Shown: positions 2,525 to 30,083 of the stretch, one piece after another
Numbering within the stretch: position 1 is the stretch's first letter
Layout of the letters: each line of letters opens with the position of its first letter
IMG/VR virus record: IMGVR_UViG_3300001477_000100
Direction: 5' to 3' (one strand)
Length of the DNA stretch: 64,000 nucleotides
Origin: an uncultured virus (IMG/VR IMGVR_UViG_3300001477_000100)
Lineage: Duplodnaviria; Heunggongvirae; Uroviricota; Caudoviricetes
The notes under the pieces: model-generated
Told to the model about the DNA's origin: nothing
The model's input: the letters and a program-made list of their open reading frames with translations, nothing else
The model's database searches: none
Program-made: the position numbers and the translations under genes

Positions 2525-2625
2525 CACCTAGCCAGCACGTGAGGCAGATTGGGATGCAAGGGCTTTTAAGGTTAATCCAACTAGCAATGGCGTAGCTAAC
2601 TATTGCATAGGGGTTAACCTTTTTG
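2525..2625 (+). ncRNA. Candidate structured ncRNA / long hairpin
   Basis: Follows a TATATTTG box at 2514-2521; GC-richer non-coding DNA with nested stems aaggttaa/ttaacctt and gcaat/attgc. Confidence 0.35.
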
Positions 2626-2633
2626 TTTCTCAA

Positions 2634-2698
2634 CGGTAGTAGTACATTGTACGAGAATGTTGACCTAGGCAGCAGTGGTGCAAATCCATGACTACCGA
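2634..2698 (+). tRNA. Aberrant short tRNA-like element, apparent CTA anticodon
   Basis: CGGTAGT/ACTACCG acceptor, GTAC/GTAC mini D-arm, TGTTG-ACCTAGG-CAGCA arm, GTGG-TGCAAAT-CCAT T-arm. Confidence 0.45.
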
Positions 2699-2746
2699 CA
2701 TTAGTTATAATAATTTAATTAAAAATTTTATAAAAATTAAGTAAAA

Positions 2747-4111
2747 ATGAAAAAGTTTTTATTGATGGGTTTCGTAGCCCTTGCTTTCGCAAGTTGCGTA
2801 AGTGACAAGGAAGTTGCCCCACAGACTCAAGACCAGAAGTACGCTGCTGCATTTGAGAATCTCGTGGGTGGACAAGTAAACGCCAATGTAAATTGGGGCT
2901 TCACTGATATGAATACCAATGTGGTAAAGGATAAAGATGATGCAAGTGCCTCTCGCCGTGCTCATAATGTAAACCGTAATCAATGGGGAACAGACCAATG
3001 TGCAGTTAATGTTCCTGTAAACGTTACTCCCAATGAAAGACAGCTAGTTTATGACTATTTCAATGTAAAACGTGAGGGAGCTGTTAACCAGAATAACGTT
3101 ATTTGGACTGACTACTTCATTTCTGAGGTATGGAAAGGTACGTCTACATCTAAAGATGGAGACGGAAATAATGTATTAGGCTCTGACAAGATGAATCACT
3201 TGCAGGTTCTTAAGGGTGATGGTAGCATTAACTCTGATGGTGCTTTAGTAGGAAACTGGGAGCATGCAAACGACTTCAATAACGGTAACCACAACTCTTC
3301 TTTTGGTACTATAGAAGGTCACACTTTTATGTATAATAGTGGTACATACGATTTTGCTTACCATAATGCAGTGGATTCTAAATACCATAATGAATATATA
3401 ATTATTCCTGGTTCTGAAATTGACCCCTCTTTAGCGGGATATTACTATGTTGGCTTCGATTTCTATGCTACACATCCAACAGGACAAGAGAGTAATAAGA
3501 ACATGGATGTTGAACGCGACTGGTTCTTTACTGACTGGATTGTACGTATCAGTCCTGCAGAGTACATTAATACTAAGCGCGTATTTGTTGAGGACTTGAA
3601 GGACAGCAGTCTCGATAATCTTAATATCAGCGACTGGGACTTCAACGATGCTGTATTTGATGTCGCATTTATTTCAGAGCAAAGTCAAGTAGACTGGAAA
3701 TATTATGATTATGCTCTTATTACTTTGTGGGCAGCAGGTGGTACCAAGGCTCTGACAATTGGTGGTAAGGAAGTGCATGAGTTGTTTGGTCAACCAGTTT
3801 CTACCATGATTAATACCAATGCTAATGGTGGCGTTGATGGTTTGGCTCCAGTTCAATTCCGTATTTATTATGGTCCTGCTGATAATACTGCAACTCGCAA
3901 TGCTTTAGAAATTGTAACAAGGGTTGGCTCTACAGAACTGACAGCAAAAACAGGTGAAGCTACTCAGAAGTGTGCAGTTTCTACTAAGACTAAGTGGATG
4001 AAGGAGCGCAAGCAACTCACTGGCAGCTATACCTCATTCAAAGCGTATGTAAAAGATAATAATCCTGAGGAGTGGTATAAAACAATTGCCAACGAAGGTG
4101 ACTTGTATTAA
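2747..4111 (+). CDS. Bacteroidales-type surface lipoprotein (DUF4842/DUF4114-like motif)
   Basis: Lipobox FASC after a hydrophobic signal peptide; EDL..DWDFNDAVFD motif. Confidence 0.75.
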   Translation: MKKFLLMGFVALAFASCVSDKEVAPQTQDQKYAAAFENLVGGQVNANVNWGFTDMNTNVVKDKDDASASRRAHNVNRNQWGTDQCAVNVPVNVTPNERQLVYDYFNVKREGAVNQNNVIWTDYFISEVWKGTSTSKDGDGNNVLGSDKMNHLQVLKGDGSINSDGALVGNWEHANDFNNGNHNSSFGTIEGHTFMYNSGTYDFAYHNAVDSKYHNEYIIIPGSEIDPSLAGYYYVGFDFYATHPTGQESNKNMDVERDWFFTDWIVRISPAEYINTKRVFVEDLKDSSLDNLNISDWDFNDAVFDVAFISEQSQVDWKYYDYALITLWAAGGTKALTIGGKEVHELFGQPVSTMINTNANGGVDGLAPVQFRIYYGPADNTATRNALEIVTRVGSTELTAKTGEATQKCAVSTKTKWMKERKQLTGSYTSFKAYVKDNNPEEWYKTIANEGDLY

Positions 4112-4862: not shown

Positions 4863-4947
4863 GGCGAGGTGGCAGAGTGGTCTATCGCACTTCTCTCATA
4901 AGGAAGGGAGCTTCGGCTCATCGTTGGTTCGAAACCAACCCTCGCTA
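4863..4947 (+). tRNA. tRNA with CAT anticodon (Met) and long variable arm, CCA not encoded
   Basis: GGCGAGG/CCTCGCT acceptor, CTTCT-CT CAT AA-GGAAG, V-arm GAGC-TTCG-GCTC, GTTGG-TTCGAAA-CCAAC. Confidence 0.85.
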
Positions 4948-4949
4948 CA

Positions 4950-5046
4950 AAGAAGCATACAGCAAGTAACTCTGTGGAGGAATGGTATACTCAATAGTCT
5001 GCAAAACTATCTTTTGTGGGTTCGAATCCCACCTTTAATGCTTCTT
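4950..5046 (+). ncRNA. tRNA-Cys(GCA)-like RNA with displaced closing stem
   Basis: D-like arm, anticodon arm ATAGT-CT GCA AA-ACTAT and T arm GTGGG-TTCGAAT-CCCAC are present but there is no canonical acceptor; the element is enclosed by AAGAAGCAT/ATGCTTCTT. Confidence 0.55.
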
Positions 5047-22711: not shown

Positions 22712-24118
22712 ATGAACGAACTATTATTTAAAAAAGTTGATGATAGAATCAAACACTTAGTTGACCTCATACAAGCGTCAATCAAAAACACCCATTTTGA
22801 AGGGAAAGTATATTTAGTTGGCGGTTGTGTGCGTGATGCATTGTTAGGATTACCCATTAAAGACATTGACATCGTTGTTGAAATGAAAAACGGTGGAATG
22901 CTGTTTGCTGTATATATGGCAATAAAACACCAGTGTTTTATTCAGAATACTAATCCAGTAGTGTTTGAAAACTATGGAACTGCGAAGTTCCAATTGTTCA
23001 AGAACGATGAATTCAAAGATATAGAGATTGAATGTGTCCAAACTAGAAAGGAACAGTACCACAAGGAAAGCAGAAACCCAGAAACTGTATTCGGAAGTCT
23101 TGAAGAGGATGCAAAAAGGCGTGACCTTACCATCAATTCTCTGTATTATAACATCAGCACAGAGAAAATACATGATTTTAACGGCTCTATAGATGACTTA
23201 GTAAATCAAGTAATAAAGACTCCAACTGACCCAGATGTTACGTTCAATGATGACCCATTGAGAATCCTACGTGTAATTCGTTTTTCAACTAGATTCGGTT
23301 GGGATATTGAAAAAAACACTTGGTTAGGGATGGTTAAAAATGCGCACCGTATTCAAATCATTTCACAAGAAAGAATCAGTGAGGAAATATCCAAGATTCT
23401 ACTTTGTGAAAAACCAAGTATCGGTATTCGGAAAATGTATTTCTGTGGCATTTTGCATAGAGTGATGCCAGACATTTATGATACAACCTACGCCTATGAG
23501 TCAAGGAATCCTATGGTTAGCACATTTGACCATACAATGAATGTGCTAGATACTGTTCAACCATATCTTGAAAATAGATTGGCTGCTTTGTTCCATGATG
23601 TTGGTAGAATTATAACAGAGAAACGTAGGGATGTGATGCCAGATAAGTTTAGTGCAGAAATTGCTGCAAGCGACTTGAAGGACATGAAATACCCTAATTA
23701 TATCATCAAATCTGTTGAAACAGCCATTAAGCATCATAGAGGTTTTGCAAGTTATGCCGATGGCGTATTACCGCCAGATAAGAAGATTAGAAAATTTATC
23801 AACTTAACTGGTGATGATTTGGGGGCAACTGCTGACCTAATGAACGCCAATAATCTTTATTGCACCTTTGGTAAGAAAAAACGGCAAGTTCTTGATATTC
23901 TCAATAGAATAGAGGAAATGGAAGATGCTGAAAAAGCAGCAAATGTTAAACTTCCTATCTCTGGAGACGATATTTTGAAGGAATTTCATTTAAAAAGTGG
24001 ACCAAATATTGGAATACTTTTAGAGGCTGTTAAAGAAGCATATTTTGAAAATCCTAATATGACTAAAGATGAAGCATTTGAGATTGTTGAAAATAAATTA
24101 AAGAGCCTAACGGTATGA
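22712..24118 (+). CDS. cca: CCA-adding tRNA nucleotidyltransferase / poly(A) polymerase family with HD domain
   Basis: VGGCVRD..DIDI, RRDLTINSL, DDPLRILR, ERISEE, DHT..FHDVG. Confidence 0.9.
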   Translation: MNELLFKKVDDRIKHLVDLIQASIKNTHFEGKVYLVGGCVRDALLGLPIKDIDIVVEMKNGGMLFAVYMAIKHQCFIQNTNPVVFENYGTAKFQLFKNDEFKDIEIECVQTRKEQYHKESRNPETVFGSLEEDAKRRDLTINSLYYNISTEKIHDFNGSIDDLVNQVIKTPTDPDVTFNDDPLRILRVIRFSTRFGWDIEKNTWLGMVKNAHRIQIISQERISEEISKILLCEKPSIGIRKMYFCGILHRVMPDIYDTTYAYESRNPMVSTFDHTMNVLDTVQPYLENRLAALFHDVGRIITEKRRDVMPDKFSAEIAASDLKDMKYPNYIIKSVETAIKHHRGFASYADGVLPPDKKIRKFINLTGDDLGATADLMNANNLYCTFGKKKRQVLDILNRIEEMEDAEKAANVKLPISGDDILKEFHLKSGPNIGILLEAVKEAYFENPNMTKDEAFEIVENKLKSLTV

Positions 24119-24215
24119 CCCATTAGGTTCTTTAATTATAATAATATAATATATTAAATAATATTAATAAAATATAATATATAATATAATATTTTTATAT
24201 TTAAATTATTTTTAG

Positions 24216-24223
24216 TATATTTG
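24216..24223 (+). promoter_or_regulatory. Promoter -7 box after an extremely AT-rich tract
   Basis: TATATTTG(CA); canonical -33 TTTG absent. Confidence 0.55.
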
Positions 24224-24240
24224 CATAAAAAAGAAAAACT

Positions 24241-24735
24241 ATGGGTACACTATGTAAAAACTGTCCTTGCAAGGGTCTTAAGACAGAAACTGATTCTTGT
24301 ATGACCCTATTTGCGAAAAAATATCATAATTCTTGTGTTACATATGATATTACTGAGTATAAGGTGAAACAAGAAAAAGAGAAATTCATGAAAGAACTTG
24401 AGGAGTTAGCAAATGAAAAGAAAACAACCATCAATAATGAAGAAAAAACTATTGATACAGAGGCATTAAATGAAACAGTGGAAATGCCTACTGATGATGT
24501 TGTAAACACTCAAGAAACGCAAAAAAAGACTACATCAAAAACAATTAAAGTTAAAAAAGCACCAAAGTCAAGAGAGGTCAAAAAACCAAAAGAGACCAAA
24601 AAAACATCAAAGTCAAGAGAGGTCAAAAAACCAAAAGAGGCTGAGAAAGAAGCAGAGATTAAAAATGATGCTATAGCAGAAATTGTTGGAAATCTTACCA
24701 CTGCTGCTGTCGCATGTGAAAATAATAATAATTAA
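24241..24735 (+). CDS. Lys/Glu-rich protein with internal repeat
   Basis: N-terminal CKNCPC; KSREVKKPKE twice (DNA repeat caaagtcaagagaggtcaaaaaaccaaaagag). Confidence 0.75.
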   Translation: MGTLCKNCPCKGLKTETDSCMTLFAKKYHNSCVTYDITEYKVKQEKEKFMKELEELANEKKTTINNEEKTIDTEALNETVEMPTDDVVNTQETQKKTTSKTIKVKKAPKSREVKKPKETKKTSKSREVKKPKEAEKEAEIKNDAIAEIVGNLTTAAVACENNNN

Positions 24736-24747
24736 ACAGAATAAATT

Positions 24748-25323
24748 ATGAATAAAATTTTGATTTTAATAGATTGTCAATATGGTTTTCTAGAGGGCGG
24801 TAATCTTCCAGTGGAAGGTGCAACCCATAAAATGAATCGTCTTGCTGAATTTATACGTGAAAACGGTCCAGCATATGATAAGATATTTCTAACAGCAGAT
24901 TGGCATCCGCATACACATTGTTCATTCAAGGCAAACGGTGGGGTATGGCCTGAACATTGCGTACAACATACGCATGATGCAGCAATCTATCAGCCAATTA
25001 TTGATGCTTTGAACGCTATTAATAGTGACTATATTGTCTTGACTAAAGGGGTCGATGAAGACCACGAGGAATATTCAGTGTTTAAGAATGAAAAGTCTAA
25101 TGCATTACTTAGTAATATTTGTGAAATGATGAAAGTAACTGATATTGATTTGGCTGGCATTGCTTTAGACGTGTGTCTTTTTGATTCATTGAAAGATGGT
25201 TTAAGGGCATTTCCAAATGTTAATTTCCACGTTCTTATTGATTTTTGCCCAGCAATAACAAAAGATGGGGAGGAAAAAGTTATAAACTTTATCAATAATT
25301 CAGAAAGAGTCAATATTGGGTAA
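24748..25323 (+). CDS. pncA: Nicotinamidase
   Basis: LIDCQYGF..GNLPVEG, TADWHP, WPEHCVQ, TKG, GIALDVC. Confidence 0.9.
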   Translation: MNKILILIDCQYGFLEGGNLPVEGATHKMNRLAEFIRENGPAYDKIFLTADWHPHTHCSFKANGGVWPEHCVQHTHDAAIYQPIIDALNAINSDYIVLTKGVDEDHEEYSVFKNEKSNALLSNICEMMKVTDIDLAGIALDVCLFDSLKDGLRAFPNVNFHVLIDFCPAITKDGEEKVINFINNSERVNIG

Positions 25324-25324
25324 T

Positions 25325-25579
25325 ATGGCAAGGATAGAGATACCAATGAAAGAGTATAATGACTTGAAAAGCAAAGTTAAGTCATTGGAACAAACTCTAG
25401 TTGATGTTTCAAAGGAAACAGCAATATATAAAGAGAAATTAAGCATTTTGGAAAGTCTTGTTATGGATTTAGAAGATGAAGGAATCCTTAACAGAATCTT
25501 TAGTTGGAAAAACATTATTAGTCCATTTAAAGAAGTCTTCAAAAAGGATGAGAAAAAGCAAGAAACTAAGACAACTTAG
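25325..25579 (+). CDS. Coiled-coil hypothetical protein
   Basis: ORF immediately after pncA. Confidence 0.7.
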   Translation: MARIEIPMKEYNDLKSKVKSLEQTLVDVSKETAIYKEKLSILESLVMDLEDEGILNRIFSWKNIISPFKEVFKKDEKKQETKTT

Positions 25580-26180
25580 AATAAAAAGAAAACTAAAAAA
25601 AGCTAAAAAGGTGGAAGAACAAATAAAAAAAGACCCATATGCTGATATTGATTCTGAATTCTGTGGGATTAGTAAAAATCACCAACTAGTGCAAGATTTT
25701 TGTAGGGCGTTAAAAAACAAAAAAGTTTTTGGTCTATTCCGCATGAGATATTCGATAAAAGACGTTCCTCCAGGACAAAAAAGAAGTGCGCTAAGAGACG
25801 ACTCTCCTATTTATTTGAAAGGCATCACATTGTATAATATGAGAAATGATTCTGATTTGATAAAAAGGCTTAAAATACTTTGCAGAATGATTTATATAAA
25901 CAATTATGATGTTAAAAAATGGGAAAAATTAAATTATAGAAGTAGTATAACTAATTTTTTAAGCTTCTATGCTGAAGATTACTTGAGTAAGAAATCTTAT
26001 CCAATAAAGCACTCGTTATTGTATTATCAATTCCTATTCGGAATAGGTTCTACTGTAGTTGGGCTTGTTTTAATGTTCTGCCTTATATACTATATGTGGG
26101 GATGTTCTGTATTGATAACAATGTTAGGGTTATTGTTGGTATATTGTGCAGGAGTAACAATAAAAATCTATAAAAATTAA
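25548..26180 (+). CDS. Membrane protein with two C-terminal TM helices
   Basis: Basic N-terminus, hydrophobic C-terminus. Confidence 0.7.
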   Translation: MRKSKKLRQLRIKRKLKKAKKVEEQIKKDPYADIDSEFCGISKNHQLVQDFCRALKNKKVFGLFRMRYSIKDVPPGQKRSALRDDSPIYLKGITLYNMRNDSDLIKRLKILCRMIYINNYDVKKWEKLNYRSSITNFLSFYAEDYLSKKSYPIKHSLLYYQFLFGIGSTVVGLVLMFCLIYYMWGCSVLITMLGLLLVYCAGVTIKIYKN

Positions 26181-26200
26181 CGTTTTTTAAGATAAAAAAA

Positions 26201-26232
26201 TTTGGATATATCAATTTAATTTCGTACATTTG
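26201..26232 (+). promoter_or_regulatory. Bacteroidetes sigma-A-type promoter
   Basis: TTTG-N20-TACATTTG. Confidence 0.85.
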
Positions 26233-26237
26233 CACCA

Positions 26238-26435
26238 TGAAGCTTCAAAACGGTAACTGAAAGACGTGGTGAGGGCAGTCCTGCCACACGACATTGCTAA
26301 GATATAACAGTCTCGACTTCGGAACAGATTGATGCTTGCAATGGAGTTAGTTTGACCGAGATTGTAAAACAGTCAGTTATCAAGCAATTACTTAGATGAG
26401 TGCGGAAGAAGGAAACGCTAGCCGCATGAAGATTG
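26238..26435 (+). ncRNA. Candidate ~200-nt structured ncRNA
   Basis: Non-coding and GC-richer; stems ggtaactga/tcagttatc, acagtctcg/cgagattgt, tgcgg/ccgca, plus a crossing cattgc/gcaatg pair. Confidence 0.55.
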
Positions 26436-26440
26436 CATTA

Positions 26441-26525
26441 AGGACGATAGCTCAGTTGGTAGAGTACACCAGAACGTGGAAACACTAGTATGGGGAGGTC
26501 TGTGGTTCGAGTCCACATTGTCCTA
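26441..26525 (+). tRNA. tRNA-like element with expanded anticodon loop (no clear anticodon)
   Basis: AGGACGA/TTGTCCT, TAGCTCAGTTGGTAGAGT D-arm, AGGTC, TGTGG-TTCGAGT-CCACA; 19-nt loop containing GTG-GAAA-CAC. Confidence 0.7.
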
Positions 26526-26540
26526 CTAATTAATAAAAAA

Positions 26541-26744
26541 ATGGCAACAGAAACTTTAGGGGCACATCTTAGAAATTTATTAACCCCATATAGAACATTG
26601 CTGTCTCTTGTTGAGGACATCAATAATGGAGAAATTGAATTGGATGTGCTGAAAAAAATTAAATGTGATAACATTGACGAAATTATAGAATTTTCCCATT
26701 CCGACAAAATGGAAAATAATTTGTGGAGAGGAGAAACAGAATAA
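26541..26744 (+). CDS. Small hypothetical protein
   Basis: MATETLGAHLRNLLTPY; start moved past the tRNA-like element. Confidence 0.65.
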   Translation: MATETLGAHLRNLLTPYRTLLSLVEDINNGEIELDVLKKIKCDNIDEIIEFSHSDKMENNLWRGETE

Positions 26745-26763
26745 TTAGTTAGAAATAAAATTT

Positions 26764-27669
26764 ATGAGTCTAGAAGTTTATCAAAAAATTGATACAATGT
26801 ACAAAAGGTACATTTTTGATGGTAGCAAATGCCCAAACAAGAAGTGGCTTAAATTCAAAAATAAGATAATCTTGGGCGAGTTCTCAAACATTGAGGCTAG
26901 TTACCTTTTCAATTGTCCTTGGGAGGCATATAGCAAGATTGATGGCACGAACTCTAAGATTGCGTTTTTCCCATCTACCCAAGAGATTCGCGTTGAAGGT
27001 AAAAACGAGAAATCAAGCTCTATGCATGGACAGTTCGAAATGCTGCAAGAAATTGGTGAGCGTATCAAGCCACAACTTTGCGCAATGTTCCCCAAAGAGA
27101 GTGCTAGATTTACTCCAGTAAAAGATAAGGAAACAAATAAAATAGAGTACTATAGGCTCGATGGAAATAAAGCAGAAACATTATGTTCCGATATGTATCG
27201 TGTAACCCTTGAAGAGGTTCCAGTTTATATCTACGGAGAGTATTTTGGTACTGGTATTCAGAAGTGCGGTTCTCGTTACATTCAGAATGGTAATGCATTC
27301 CGTGTGTTTGACATCAAACAGCAAGGTTGGTGGACACCAAAGGATGTAAGAGACTCATTGTGTAAGGGTCTTGGACTAGGCACTGTTCCTTTCTTGGGTA
27401 TAATGGCGCTCAAGGAAATCGAAGATAAGGTTAGAAGTGGTTTTACAACTCAGTTTGAGGGTGCTGCTGACCCAACTATGATTGAGGAGGGTATTGTTGC
27501 TCGCCCAGTAATTCCACTCTGTAATGGAAGCGGTAAGAGAATCATTGTAAAAGTTAAATACTGTGATTACATTGAGTATGACACCGTGCGTAAAGAGTTT
27601 TCAGACGAAGAGTTTGAAGAGTTTAATACATGGTATCACGAAAATATCGAAAACATTAAGGTAGAGTGA
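26764..27669 (+). CDS. Rnl2-type ATP-dependent RNA ligase
   Basis: Motifs I KIDGTN, III YGEYFG, IIIa FDI, IV EGIVARP, V VKVK. Confidence 0.85.
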   Translation: MSLEVYQKIDTMYKRYIFDGSKCPNKKWLKFKNKIILGEFSNIEASYLFNCPWEAYSKIDGTNSKIAFFPSTQEIRVEGKNEKSSSMHGQFEMLQEIGERIKPQLCAMFPKESARFTPVKDKETNKIEYYRLDGNKAETLCSDMYRVTLEEVPVYIYGEYFGTGIQKCGSRYIQNGNAFRVFDIKQQGWWTPKDVRDSLCKGLGLGTVPFLGIMALKEIEDKVRSGFTTQFEGAADPTMIEEGIVARPVIPLCNGSGKRIIVKVKYCDYIEYDTVRKEFSDEEFEEFNTWYHENIENIKVE

Positions 27670-27911
27670 TGGCTAGAGATTTATTTAGAGGTATTATCAG
27701 AACATTGCTTTTGTTATGCCTAATGGGTGGCTGCGTAGAGGGATGCTATTTTATGGGTGAACTATCAAAAAACCAAACTGATAGGTATAACCCATATTAT
27801 AATAACTCTAGGAGTTACCCATACGGTAACGTTGAAGAAACAGAGGAAAGAGACTATGAGCCAATTAACACAGATACAAGCGCAACAACGTCACCTAGAC
27901 TCGAATATTGA
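27669..27911 (+). CDS. Small membrane-anchored protein
   Basis: Hydrophobic N-terminus with GC. Confidence 0.55.
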   Translation: MARDLFRGIIRTLLLLCLMGGCVEGCYFMGELSKNQTDRYNPYYNNSRSYPYGNVEETEERDYEPINTDTSATTSPRLEY

Positions 27912-28290
27912 ACAAGTTTTTATGTATCAAACCTCTTATGGAAGAACAAAATATTTTCCATTTAGAGTTGGCGATATTGTTCGTGTTACAGATTGGGGTT
28001 ACTGTTACTCTTCTTACACAAAAGCATTCGTTTTTCTAACAGGAAGTAGGGAAACCCCATATTATTCTTTTTATAAAAGAGAACAAGAAGGTGATAAACA
28101 ACTTTTCAAGATAATAAATATTGCAGAGCATGAGCTTATGAGTGGAGATATAGTTTGCTATATTCAAGATAGGCTTAAACGTGGTGTGGTCATAGCTCCA
28201 GAAGGGTTAAAACTAGTAAAGCAGTTTCCTCTTAGGAAAAATGAAACAATTAACATAGTATTAAAAAAAATAAATGAAACAGGGCTATGA
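27856..28290 (+). CDS. Hypothetical protein, tandem paralog A
   Basis: MSQLTQIQ..PFRVGDIVRV..EGLKLVKQFPLRKNE. Confidence 0.75.
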   Translation: MSQLTQIQAQQRHLDSNIEQVFMYQTSYGRTKYFPFRVGDIVRVTDWGYCYSSYTKAFVFLTGSRETPYYSFYKREQEGDKQLFKIINIAEHELMSGDIVCYIQDRLKRGVVIAPEGLKLVKQFPLRKNETINIVLKKINETGL

Positions 28291-28721
28291 GCCAATTAAC
28301 ACAGATACAATCAGTGAAACGTTCAAACCCTAGAGCTAAAGAAGTGTTTATTTACTACAAAGCTAGTGGGGGTAGAGATTGTTTGCCTTTTAGGATTGGT
28401 GATATTGTTCGTGTTAGAAATTGGAGGGATGTTTATCCTAGATATATTGAAGCATTCCGTTATTTTACGAATAGCAGCGATTTCCCATATTATTCTCCTG
28501 GTAGTTTCAAAAAAACAGAAAAAAGAAGACAAGAAGGTGATAAACAACTTTTCAAGATAATAAAAATTGCTGAACATGAACGAGACAAATCTATACTCTG
28601 CTACATTCAAGATAGGTTTAAACATGGTGTGGTCATAGCTCAAGAAGGGTTGAAACTAGTAAAACAATTTCCTCTTAGGAAAAACGAAACAAATAATATA
28701 ATATTAAAAAAAATAAAATAA
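28287..28721 (+). CDS. Hypothetical protein, tandem paralog B
   Basis: MSQLTQIQ..PFRIGDIVRV..EGLKLVKQFPLRKNE. Confidence 0.75.
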   Translation: MSQLTQIQSVKRSNPRAKEVFIYYKASGGRDCLPFRIGDIVRVRNWRDVYPRYIEAFRYFTNSSDFPYYSPGSFKKTEKRRQEGDKQLFKIIKIAEHERDKSILCYIQDRFKHGVVIAQEGLKLVKQFPLRKNETNNIILKKIK

Positions 28722-28801
28722 AAAAATAAAATTATTGTATTTCTCCAATATTAAAAAAGAAAATATGATTACAAATTTAAAAATTTTAAAAGAAAAAATA
28801 T

Positions 28802-30025
28802 ATGAAGCAAATCGTAACTAAATTCACCGACCAAGATATGTATACTTTTACTTGCCAGTATTACATTCTTCACACATATCCTCGTGCAGAGGTGCGGTAT
28901 TCATTTTTTGACCGCAATCACACACGTTATCCAAAAGGTTTTAGTGAACTGTTGCAAGAACAGATAAATGGCATGAAAGATGTTGTGATTACAGAGGATG
29001 AAATAGAATTTATGAAGAATCGTATTTACTTCCTCCCTGAATGGTATTACAACTTTCTACGTGGTTTTAGATTTAATCCCTCAGAGGTACATATTTTCCA
29101 AGACCTTGATGGGTATCTGTCCATCATGATTGAAGGCAAATGGTATTCTACAATTATGTGGGAAATGCCTATTCTTTCAACAATATCTGAACTCATGCAT
29201 ATCATCAATAGTGACATTGAAAAAGTAGATAGAACATATGAATATGAAAAGGCTGTTGAAAAAGGTGTTAAAGCATTTAGCAATGGACTTCTATTGAGTG
29301 ACATGGGAACTAGAAGGCGTTTTGATTTCCAGAACCACTATGATGTGGTTAAAGCACTTAAAGATGCGGAGTCTTTGTGCGTTTTAAACGAAAAATGCAC
29401 TGGTAAATTCGTTGGAACATCTAATGTATGGCTTGCAAAAGAGTTTGACCTCACTCCTATTGGAACTATGAGTCATCAACTTTGCTCTTTCGAAGAGTGC
29501 GTAAGTGGTGTGTTTGAGTGTAATCATCAGCTAATGAAAAAATGGTCAGATGTGTATTCAGGAGACCTTGGCATTTTCCTTCCAGATTGCTTTGGAAGTA
29601 ATATATTTCTTTCCAATTTCTCTAAAGACATGGCTAAGATGTTTGACGGAATCCGAATTGACAGCGGTGACGAAAGGGAAGAGACTGAGAAGATGATTGA
29701 GAAATATAACTCTCTTGGTATTGACCCTAGAACCAAGTCAATAGTATATTCCAATGCCCTTACAATAGATAAAGCTATTGATTTGCATAAGTGGCTTGAT
29801 GGGCGCATGAAGGATTCTTATGGTATAGGAACGCATCTTATGGCTGACGTTACCAACCGTGAAACAAATGAAAAGTTCCCTTATTCCAATATAGTCATCA
29901 AACTTGTTGGAATGAGAATCACCGAAAACAGAAAATGGCTTGATTGCATCAAGTTGTCAAACGACAAGGGTAAGACGCTTGGAAATCCAGAGAAATGCGT
30001 TTATATCCAAAAGCAGATAGGATAA
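28802..30025 (+). CDS. pncB: Nicotinate phosphoribosyltransferase
   Basis: DQDMYTFT, DMGTRRR, GTSNV, PIGTMSH, GIRIDSGD, YGIGT, NIVIK, KLS. Confidence 0.93.
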   Translation: MKQIVTKFTDQDMYTFTCQYYILHTYPRAEVRYSFFDRNHTRYPKGFSELLQEQINGMKDVVITEDEIEFMKNRIYFLPEWYYNFLRGFRFNPSEVHIFQDLDGYLSIMIEGKWYSTIMWEMPILSTISELMHIINSDIEKVDRTYEYEKAVEKGVKAFSNGLLLSDMGTRRRFDFQNHYDVVKALKDAESLCVLNEKCTGKFVGTSNVWLAKEFDLTPIGTMSHQLCSFEECVSGVFECNHQLMKKWSDVYSGDLGIFLPDCFGSNIFLSNFSKDMAKMFDGIRIDSGDEREETEKMIEKYNSLGIDPRTKSIVYSNALTIDKAIDLHKWLDGRMKDSYGIGTHLMADVTNRETNEKFPYSNIVIKLVGMRITENRKWLDCIKLSNDKGKTLGNPEKCVYIQKQIG

Positions 30026-30052
30026 ACATTAACATAGATTAACGTGGGATAT

Positions 30053-30083
30053 TTTGCTATTCCACGTTTTTTTTATATATTTG
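30053..30083 (+). promoter_or_regulatory. Promoter overlapping terminator hairpin
   Basis: TTTG-N19-TATATTTG; TTTG lies in the loop of aacgtgggata/tattccacgtt. Confidence 0.8.

Follow-up and report, generated by a model that had tools for sequence, protein, structure and literature searches.

The window analysed here, 64,000 nucleotides (nt) of an uncultured virus (IMG/VR IMGVR_UViG_3300001477_000100; Caudoviricetes), belongs to a record that represents a complete 295-kb giant rumen phage genome (G000) with direct terminal repeats and 34% GC. Positions 26201-27669 of this window hold, on the plus strand, a predicted promoter, an RNA element with a tRNA-shaped 3′ end, a small open reading frame (ORF) and an RNA ligase gene, which a preliminary description had joined into one RNA-plus-ligase module. 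On balance we favour the view that the interval is a self-contained phage gene for a stable non-coding RNA (ncRNA) of ~290 nt with a handle-plus-docking mechanism, and not an RNA-plus-ligase machine. That the element is a stand-alone ncRNA we regard as very probable, while the handle-plus-docking mechanism is put forward tentatively. The best reading is a new phage ncRNA of the tRNA-island type, that is, a tRNA-like RNA whose kind is known but which is itself undescribed. The RNA is expressed and almost frozen, its helix map is clear, and it appears to have given up decoding for a motif known to dock both proteins and RNA. As a candidate new Rfam family that is small enough for biochemistry and structure determination, it could make the binding partners of phage tRNA-linked RNAs testable.

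The ~290 nt that follow the promoter contain no open frame in any of the six frames, even when single stop codons are read through, and their GC content of 0.44-0.46 exceeds that of the genome (0.34), in agreement with the initial view of this stretch as GC-richer, non-coding DNA. Rfam 15 returned no match besides tRNA, and a literature search at the level of titles and abstracts found no description, so that the RNA still counts as undescribed. BLAST of 26150-26800 against 50,697 phage records gave no match. ARAGORN reported no tmRNA at the element, where an open frame is also lacking, and the tmRNA of this phage sits at genome positions 243191-243516. No riboswitch or other cis-regulatory family in Rfam matched the element, and the gene downstream of it varies between loci.

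Transcription is predicted to start from a Bacteroidota-type promoter (26201-26232, plus strand) composed of TTTG at -33, a spacer of 20 nt and TACATTTG at -7; TAnnTTTG is given as the Bacteroides -7 consensus in PMC4747536. The pattern TTTG-N17-23-TAnnTTTG occurs at 29 sites in the window against 5.3 expected, a number reached by none of 100 shuffles, and these sites lie mostly on the gene strand. The consensus promoter recorded earlier ahead of the RNA is thus one of an enriched set, although a sigma-70 scan with an E. coli-type consensus did not pick up the promoter at 26201-26232.

Relatives of the RNA were sought with an exact motif from the loop of hairpin H (below), which yielded 4 viral and 16 metagenome stretches and, with the window included, 16 distinct RNA versions. 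A protein search with the ligase gave seven viral loci (L001-L007), and the RNA is present only in L001 and L006; ARAGORN and Rfam at its gathering threshold reported nothing on L001-L007, though these two loci hold the element. In viral contigs a pattern for the 5′ domain returned only the two loci already known, and in genome contigs a pattern for the element gave a single match, a false positive in a GC-rich proteobacterial metagenome-assembled genome. The same promoter and RNA occur in three contexts, each of which retains the promoter: a long type A (window, L001, L006, L017-L020, L024 and L028-L030), a long type B with a diverged 5′ domain (L016, L023 and L025; 81-85 bits on the type-A model versus 172-175) and a short form from which the 5′ domain is deleted (L011, L012 and L027). 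The tRNA-shaped module likewise comes in two forms, form 1 with a normal anticodon arm that makes it a tRNA-Ala(AGC) (L012 and L023) and form 2 with a replaced arm (the other 14 versions). Type B and the short form each include both kinds of arm; the central part of the tRNA module has therefore been exchanged more than once or has travelled by recombination.

Identity to the window amounts to 96.6-99.3% in the 5′ domain (eight type-A loci) and 83.9-98.8% in the tRNA-like module (ten loci), which puts the rate of change of the non-tRNA part below that of the tRNA-shaped part. For the adjacent ligase genes the figure is 72.3-88.4% (seven alignable type-A loci, five of them among the eight compared for the 5′ domain). 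Judged from these alignments, the RNA is under very strong constraint.

Comparison between the types also indicates that the RNA is structured. The 5′ domain (26252-26381, plus strand) is predicted from covariation and RNAalifold to form a four-helix junction closed by P1 (26252-60/26373-81), with P1, P2, P3, P3b, P3′ and P5′ all present in the RNAalifold consensus of 12 full rows. P2 is a hairpin (26266-26287; 26266-69/26284-87 and 26273-75/26280-82) with the loop CAGU, in which L019 has C26276 changed to U; its GUGG/CCAC pairing in type A becomes AAGG/CCUU in type B, with two compensatory pairs. The long arm (26292-26343) consists of P3 (26292-97/26338-43), P3b (26299-301/26335-37) and P3′ (26308-13/26326-31), and the P3′ hairpin, whose apex reads CGAC-UUCG-GAAC, has five of six pairs changed on both sides with 100% of cells paired. 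P5′, predicted by RNAalifold as a UAGUUU/AGAUUG hairpin (26348-26364; 26348-53/26359-64), has an invariant stem and carries all its variation in the loop 26354-58 (at 26356 and 26358, and GACCG versus UAUA in type B). The P5′ pairing is plausible in this model; alternatively, GUUU may pair with AAAC (26350-53/26367-70), as in a first model that was replaced after the type-B comparison. Beyond the junction, P4 (26384-89/26431-36) bridges to hairpin H, the two together spanning 26384-26436, and P4 shows two compensatory and two one-sided changes between types A and B. H has a stem at 26401-05/26422-26 and the loop AAGAAGGAAACGCUAG at 26406-21; it is identical in 16 of 16 versions, an invariance that is partly built in because the search pattern required its loop. 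Resemblances of hairpin H and the 5′ domain to a K-turn, a tetraloop-receptor and RNase P CR-I were considered and dropped by eye, as the pieces misfit.

When the window is set against the type-B locus L025, 14 of the 44 modelled pairs differ, 13 of these stay paired and 10 are compensatory. A covariance model built from the type-A 5′ domain recovers nine of nine full type-A copies and three of three type-B copies, and in its alignment (15 rows) 99.0% of cells are paired and 10 of 33 pairs are changed on both sides. Shuffling gives a mean of 4.5 such double changes and reaches the observed number in 0 of 500 trials, while sliding the partners by 1-3 columns leaves 0-2. Thermodynamic folding of 26225-26530 was no better than that of shuffled sequence (z 0.04), and therefore the evidence for structure is comparative only. 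Several elements of the preliminary description hold up in this light: its outer helix 26252-60/26373-81 is P1 and covaries, its hairpin at 26265-90 is real as P2, and its tgcgg/ccgca pair corresponds to the predicted stem of H, which is invariant and hence gives no covariation signal. Two others do not. The proposed helix 26307-15/26357-65 has 0 of 9 pairs double-changed, four pairs with unpaired cells and only 87% of cells paired, and P3′ fits better; with P3′ in place the cattgc/gcaatg pair (26292-97/26338-43), initially taken as a pseudoknot, becomes nested as P3, so that no pseudoknot is required. Comparison of the two types thus gives covariation in P1, P2, P3′ and P4 and no double changes in the discarded helix.

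The 3′ module (26441-26525, plus strand) is recognised over model positions 1-71 by the Rfam tRNA model RF00005, whose gathering score of 29 it exceeds with 42.9 bits. This result bears out the tRNA-like element originally described here, whereas the default run of ARAGORN called no tRNA at 26441-26525. It comprises an acceptor stem (26441-47/26518-24), a D arm, a T arm (26501-05/26513-17) and the discriminator A26525, with no encoded CCA. The acceptor stem (from A26441-U26524 inward), D stem and T stem stay paired through the observed changes; the T stem of L020 has one compensatory pair (G-C to A-U), the acceptor change in L024 gives G4-U69, and one-sided changes elsewhere preserve pairing. 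The anticodon arm departs from this pattern, measuring 29 nt instead of 17 (27-31 nt across the window and the 13 other form-2 versions). The replaced arm (26467-26495) runs through an imperfect stem, GAA (26472-74), C, a GUG-GAAA-CAC mini-hairpin, U, AGUA (26487-90, opposite GAA) and the stem return, and its GAA, AGUA and GAAA loop are retained in 14 of 14 form-2 rows and in L016. AGUA/GAA is given as the canonical sarcin-ricin motif sequence in PMC1865062, and the arm matches the sequence pattern of this bulged-G, loop E-type motif, with AGUA opposite GAA in a helix-flanked internal loop. A seven-base anticodon loop with U33 on a five-pair stem is missing in the window and present only in L012 and L023. 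The position ahead of AGUA is not a U33, since it varies among U, C (L025 and L016) and A (L020). We therefore read the replaced arm as a single structural unit standing in for the anticodon loop, consistent with the earlier description of a tRNA mimic without an anticodon. With its anticodon loop replaced, the module cannot decode in this phage.

Public RNA libraries show that the element is expressed. Thirteen RNA-library rows of public runs contain the stretch or part of it, and contigs of four runs from four studies (X1-X4) were compared. In each of the four the element forms a separate contig with 3-18 times the depth of its flanks: 26208-26472 at depth 150.7 (flanks 18.5 and 8.6) in X1, 26271-26523 at 44.1 (3.7 and 3.1) in X2, 26208-26526 at 96.2 (27.2 and 34.5) in X3 and 26230-26523 at 24.7 (3.6 and 3.2) in X4. 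These contigs connect the 5′ domain to the tRNA-like module without a break, with no gaps and no differences from the window, and three of them (X2, X3 and X4) end at 26523, 26526 and 26523, within two bases of A26525. X1 ends at 26472; parts that are not covered, such as 26474-26555 in X1, carry no evidence of absence. The RNA thus accumulates above its neighbours as one piece ending at the tRNA-like 3′ end. As to the RNA ends and circular junctions raised in the preliminary description, a transcript exists, and its contigs end at the tRNA-like 3′ end in three of four cases, but no spliced, circular or back-joined junction was found in the contigs of the four runs, a weak negative as contigs drop rare forms. 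In X1 and X3, contigs share 26208-26241, which covers the promoter and start, and then diverge into different sequence, suggesting that the same promoter segment also heads another transcript or a variant locus.

The two genes behind the RNA are present as originally described. The small ORF (26541-26744, plus strand, 67 aa) matches no Pfam or NCBIfam family and behaves as a variable passenger. It occurs in the window, L006, L019, L020 and L024, whereas L017, L018, L028, L029 and L030 have other sequence after the tRNA-like module, with the ligase start within ~140 nt in L017, L029 and L030. In L001 it is replaced by a 145-aa ORF (2598-3035) with a weak match to the endonuclease-like family DUF559 (17.5 bits, below the cut-off of 20.6), although the first ~35 nt of the small-ORF region are still conserved. 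The ligase gene (26764-27669, plus strand) encodes an ATP-dependent RNA ligase with an Rnl2-like nucleotidyltransferase domain (PF09414, 56 bits). As a single sequence it retrieved nothing from the PDB at E values up to 1, while a profile of 26 diverse homologs retrieved T4 RNA ligase 2 (T4 Rnl2) as its best match (1s68, E 3.2e-17; 2hvq, E 7.5e-16). Its structural model has a pLDDT of 93.4 (a shallow-alignment model, at pLDDT 48, was unusable), and Foldseek places T4 Rnl2 at ranks 1-4 (1s68 and 2hvr, E ~2e-10), followed by the Naegleria nick-sealing ligase and a trypanosome editing ligase. Motif I K58 (KxDG), D60 and G61 are invariant in the 26 ligase sequences.

The assignment as an Rnl2-type ligase therefore stands at the level of the domain, given the 1s68 profile match, the fold and K58, but finds no support at the level of an equivalog. 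T4 Rnl2 is the top PDB match by profile and by fold (E 1.9e-10; TM 0.51 query-normalised and 0.64 target-normalised); in contrast, the window ligase shares only 17% identity with it, the sequence match is confined to the nucleotidyltransferase domain (chain residues 15-186), ~35 residues follow the domain, and scores for TIGR02307 and TIGR02306 are 15.7 bits against 197 and 19 against 151. The same phage carries a second PF09414 RNA ligase gene (G000:C1:103292-103804, in a 379-aa frame), and no polynucleotide kinase (AAA_33) was found in its genome. A protein identical to the window ligase is also recorded on a contig of 407,879 nt, whereas the record of the window measures 295 kb.

A ligase gene follows the RNA in all eight type-A loci with at least 1 kb of downstream sequence (window, L001, L006, L017, L019, L020, L029 and L030); three further type-A loci are too short downstream to be assessed, and the eight assessed loci form one syntenic clade. 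On the plus strand no promoter motif occurs in 26232-30053, and no terminator-like site was found after the tRNA-like module, which together make co-transcription of the RNA, the small ORF and the ligase likely. The link between RNA and ligase thus amounts to synteny, with co-transcription probable, in a single clade. Outside this clade the two part company. Three complete related genomes of 410 kb that bear the ligase (G001, G002 and G005) lack the RNA by BLAST and covariance model and have only the P3′ module, located elsewhere, and L002 has a 158-aa ORF in place of the RNA. Conversely, in L011, L012, L023 and L027 the core made up of hairpin H and the tRNA-like module lies among other genes, with flanks that contain no ligase, and the contigs of L011 and L012 (45% and 18% complete) contain no ligase homolog. 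The protein collection holds 883 relatives of the ligase versus 16 distinct versions of the RNA, a comparison in which the RNA search needed an exact motif. The ligase hence looks like a neighbour and not a required partner, and the functional RNA-plus-ligase module proposed in the preliminary description is not borne out: ligase phages exist without the RNA, the RNA core exists without a nearby ligase, and the link is limited to one clade.

The wider family to which the RNA can be compared is that of the phage RNAs GOLLD and ROOL, whose position beside tRNA islands is a long-standing puzzle and of whose theme this RNA would be a compact relative. They are described as lying near tRNA islands and having an unknown function, with tRNAs sometimes placed in the GOLLD linker (bioRxiv 10.1101/2024.12.08.627333). 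Like them, the window RNA is phage-encoded, highly structured and joined to a tRNA-like module. Unlike them, it matches neither RF02032 nor any ROOL model in 25500-28000 at E values up to 10, and its upstream part measures ~200 nt rather than 580-800 nt or more and forms a four-helix junction plus hairpin. The phage also encodes a GOLLD-like RNA (G000:C1:240692-241113) that matches RF02032 over the full model length (E 2e-22), although its score of 85.7 bits does not reach the gathering score of 150. It is directly followed by a 123-nt tRNA-like, the pair occupying G000:C1:240555-241113 (L035 757-1314, minus strand), and the expanded anticodon arm of this tRNA-like contains the hairpin CACUCU-CGACCUCGGAAC-AGAGUG. 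Such GOLLD-like/tRNA-like pairs also occur in G001, G005, G008 and G009. Within the 5′ domain of the window RNA, the 31 nt at 26307-26337 are 100% identical to the expanded anticodon arm of the GOLLD-linked tRNA-like in G001, and the same P3′ arm module with covarying stems is found in G000, G005 and G002. On the strength of this identity and the covarying versions, the expanded anticodon arm of the GOLLD-linked tRNA-likes and the long arm of the 5′ domain are homologous, and the 5′ domain looks like a worn tRNA-derived module.

Other known RNAs resemble parts of the element. With tRNAs (RF00005) it shares the acceptor, D and T arms, and its relatives in L012 and L023 are called as tRNA-Ala(AGC); it differs in having no 7-nt loop, no conserved U33 and a 200-nt structured 5′ extension that stays joined in the RNA contigs. 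tRNA-shaped 3′ handles are familiar from the T4 stable RNAs species 1 and 2 (rnaC and rnaD), MALAT1-mascRNA and the tRNA-like structures of plant viruses. Such modules are recognised by tRNA-processing enzymes, and the two T4 species likewise come from a phage and have no known function. Unlike these handles, the anticodon arm in the window carries a sarcin-ricin-type loop and a GNRA hairpin. The bacterial Y RNA-like YrlA, which acts with Ro60/Rsr and often lies beside an RtcB ligase, has in common with the window RNA that it mimics a tRNA and is encoded next to an RNA ligase. The window RNA differs from it, as its ligase is Rnl2-like and not RtcB, its acceptor ends are open and its anticodon arm is capped, unlike the YrlA topology; TROVE/Ro60 (PF05731) had 0 matches in the complete 295-kb genome, while control genomes were positive.

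Based on these comparisons, we propose that the promoter starts a transcript that would fold into three parts, the junction at 26252-26381, the bridging helix with hairpin H at 26384-26436 and the tRNA module at 26441-26525. The tRNA-shaped end would serve as a handle for the enzymes that process tRNA ends and add CCA, of which the phage itself encodes the CCA-adding one; they would define the 3′ end and make the RNA more stable. The invariant loops, namely those of the UUCG arm, hairpin H and the GAA/AGUA-GAAA arm, would be docking surfaces for a shared partner, which may be common to the tRNA-like appended to the GOLLD-like RNA and is probably part of the translation or tRNA apparatus. In one clade, the promoter would also serve the small ORF and the ligase as genes further downstream. 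An extension of this proposal appears unlikely: giant Bacteroidota phages would possess a single system of tRNA-shaped adaptor RNAs without anticodons, made up of this RNA and the GOLLD-linked expanded-arm tRNA-likes, and the shared UUCG-capped arm together with the sarcin-ricin/GAAA arm would dock them on one partner, be it the GOLLD assembly, the ribosome or a translation factor. If true, it would give a first handle on the purpose of GOLLD-linked tRNAs.

Several observations weigh against the proposal of a stable RNA with handle and docking surfaces. True ends, CCA addition and RNase P cleavage are beyond what contigs can resolve, and the depth excess could partly reflect co-occurring strains collapsing onto a conserved segment; signs of such collapse are a variant upstream flank in X3 and a branch at 26241 in X1 and X3, while X2 and X4 are without such loose ends. 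The alignment from which pairs were counted was fitted to the structure and comprises essentially two clades, so that few independent events underlie the counts, and the invariance of the replaced arm is partly owed to a search pattern that required the H loop. In L012 and L023 a normal tRNA-Ala(AGC) occupies this position, so that in some phages the tRNA-shaped part may still function as a tRNA. Moreover, the anticodon-arm stem is imperfect in nearly every version (3-4 of 5 pairs), which could be decay instead of function.

Decay in its full form would make the element a functionless remnant of a tRNA gene, preceded by a leader that is structured by chance. This reading would account for that imperfect stem and for the lack of a thermodynamic fold signal, but it is hardly credible beside a 5′ domain that stays 96.6-99.3% identical next to ligase genes at 72-88%, 10 compensatory pairs and RNA depth raised in four studies. 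A second alternative takes the anticodon arm as interrupted rather than replaced: the element would be an intron-bearing tRNA-Thr(AGU) from which an unknown endonuclease excises the 14 nt at 26471-84, the halves being sealed by the co-transcribed Rnl2-like ligase, while the plain-tRNA relatives are intron-less. In its favour, ARAGORN with the intron option places a 14-nt intron at 30/31 of a tRNA-Thr(agt), the tRNA at this site in L012 and L023 is not interrupted and has a related loop (UUAGCAG, compared with YUAGUAK), and a ligase of the nick-sealing type stands behind the RNA in every assessable type-A locus. However, the would-be U33 is replaced in L025, L016 and L020, the would-be intron is nearly invariant, and the GAA inside it forms a motif with the AGUA that the anticodon loop would supply, making exon and intron one unit. 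Splicing would leave an anticodon stem of four pairs that contains a mismatch in the majority of versions; the intron would sit at a non-canonical position, and a bulge-helix-bulge could not be drawn by eye. Rfam gave no intron family at E values up to 10, and 14 nt is far below the size of a group I core. Form-2 elements exist without a ligase in the available flank (L011 and L027), and all four RNA runs show the unspliced form only, a weak point, since contigs lose rare forms and sampling of mature tRNAs is poor. We consider this reading very improbable.

Phages use tRNAs against tRNA-targeting defences, and the module, perhaps with the degenerate 5′ junction, could therefore be a decoy that absorbs a host defence enzyme or toxin recognising the tRNA body while being immune to anticodon-loop cleavage; the ligase, CCA-adding enzyme and NAD-salvage genes would then belong to the same counter-defence neighbourhood. 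A tRNA body that is kept while its anticodon loop is removed, the abundance of the RNA and the presence of a CCA-adding enzyme, a nicotinamidase-like protein, an RNA ligase and an NAPRTase as neighbours all agree with a decoy. Nevertheless, it leaves the near-invariant 5′ domain, hairpin H and the specific GAA/AGUA-GAAA arm unexplained, has no known target and does not suit the short and type-B forms, which occur in other neighbourhoods, so that we judge it unlikely. The position of the RNA between the only promoter motif and the ligase operon, with no terminator behind it, would also suit a cis-acting leader of that operon (the small ORF, the ligase and on to the NAPRTase) or a tRNA-like punctuation mark for RNase P/Z cleavage. 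Such a role is improbable, because the next gene varies (it may be the 67-aa ORF, the DUF559-like ORF or the ligase itself, or else tRNAs and small ORFs of no relation), the RNA contigs do not extend past the tRNA-like 3′ end, beyond which depth is 3-18 times lower, and there is no match to a riboswitch family. A stable, stand-alone ncRNA remains our preferred reading over these alternatives.

The genome around the element is rich in tRNA-related genes, with ~40 tRNA genes and one tmRNA called by ARAGORN. tRNA and NAD-salvage genes cluster around the RNA and flank the unit at 22712-25323 and 28802-30025. Upstream lie the CCA-adding enzyme, which has an HD domain (22712-24118, ~2 kb upstream), and the nicotinamidase-like protein of the isochorismatase family; the NAPRTase is the neighbour downstream of the unit. 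Between the ligase and the downstream cluster, at 27757-28721, two adjacent ORFs of 177 aa and 144 aa are paralogs that both contain FRVGDIVRV and LKLVKQFPLRKNET, and neither matched a family. At L023 the RNA lies beside CinA-like and HIT genes and a tRNA array, and this locus also has a tRNA with a CUA anticodon. The phage itself encodes a tRNA of this amber suppressor type outside the window (G000:C1:238172-238263), and despite this the long ORFs of the window end in TAA (22), TGA (5) and TAG (2).

Further tRNA-like features occur elsewhere in the genome. Outside the window, at G000:C1:254192-254813, the intron option of ARAGORN calls a tRNA-Pro(GGG) with a 531-nt insert; by eye the insert has an endonuclease-like ORF, which makes a group I intron carrying a homing endonuclease one candidate and a false call another. 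Within the window a partial tRNA match (4974-5033, 41.4 bits) lies just after a tRNA-Met (4863-4947), and this match, in the region 4950-5046, is enclosed, as seen by eye, by a 9-bp outer stem AAGAAGCAU/AUGCUUCUU. Genome-wide, 30 T-arm-like motifs fall outside the default tRNA calls of ARAGORN, including the T arm of this element; some of them are called with the intron option, and several are preceded by GGAAAC...ACAGCAA.

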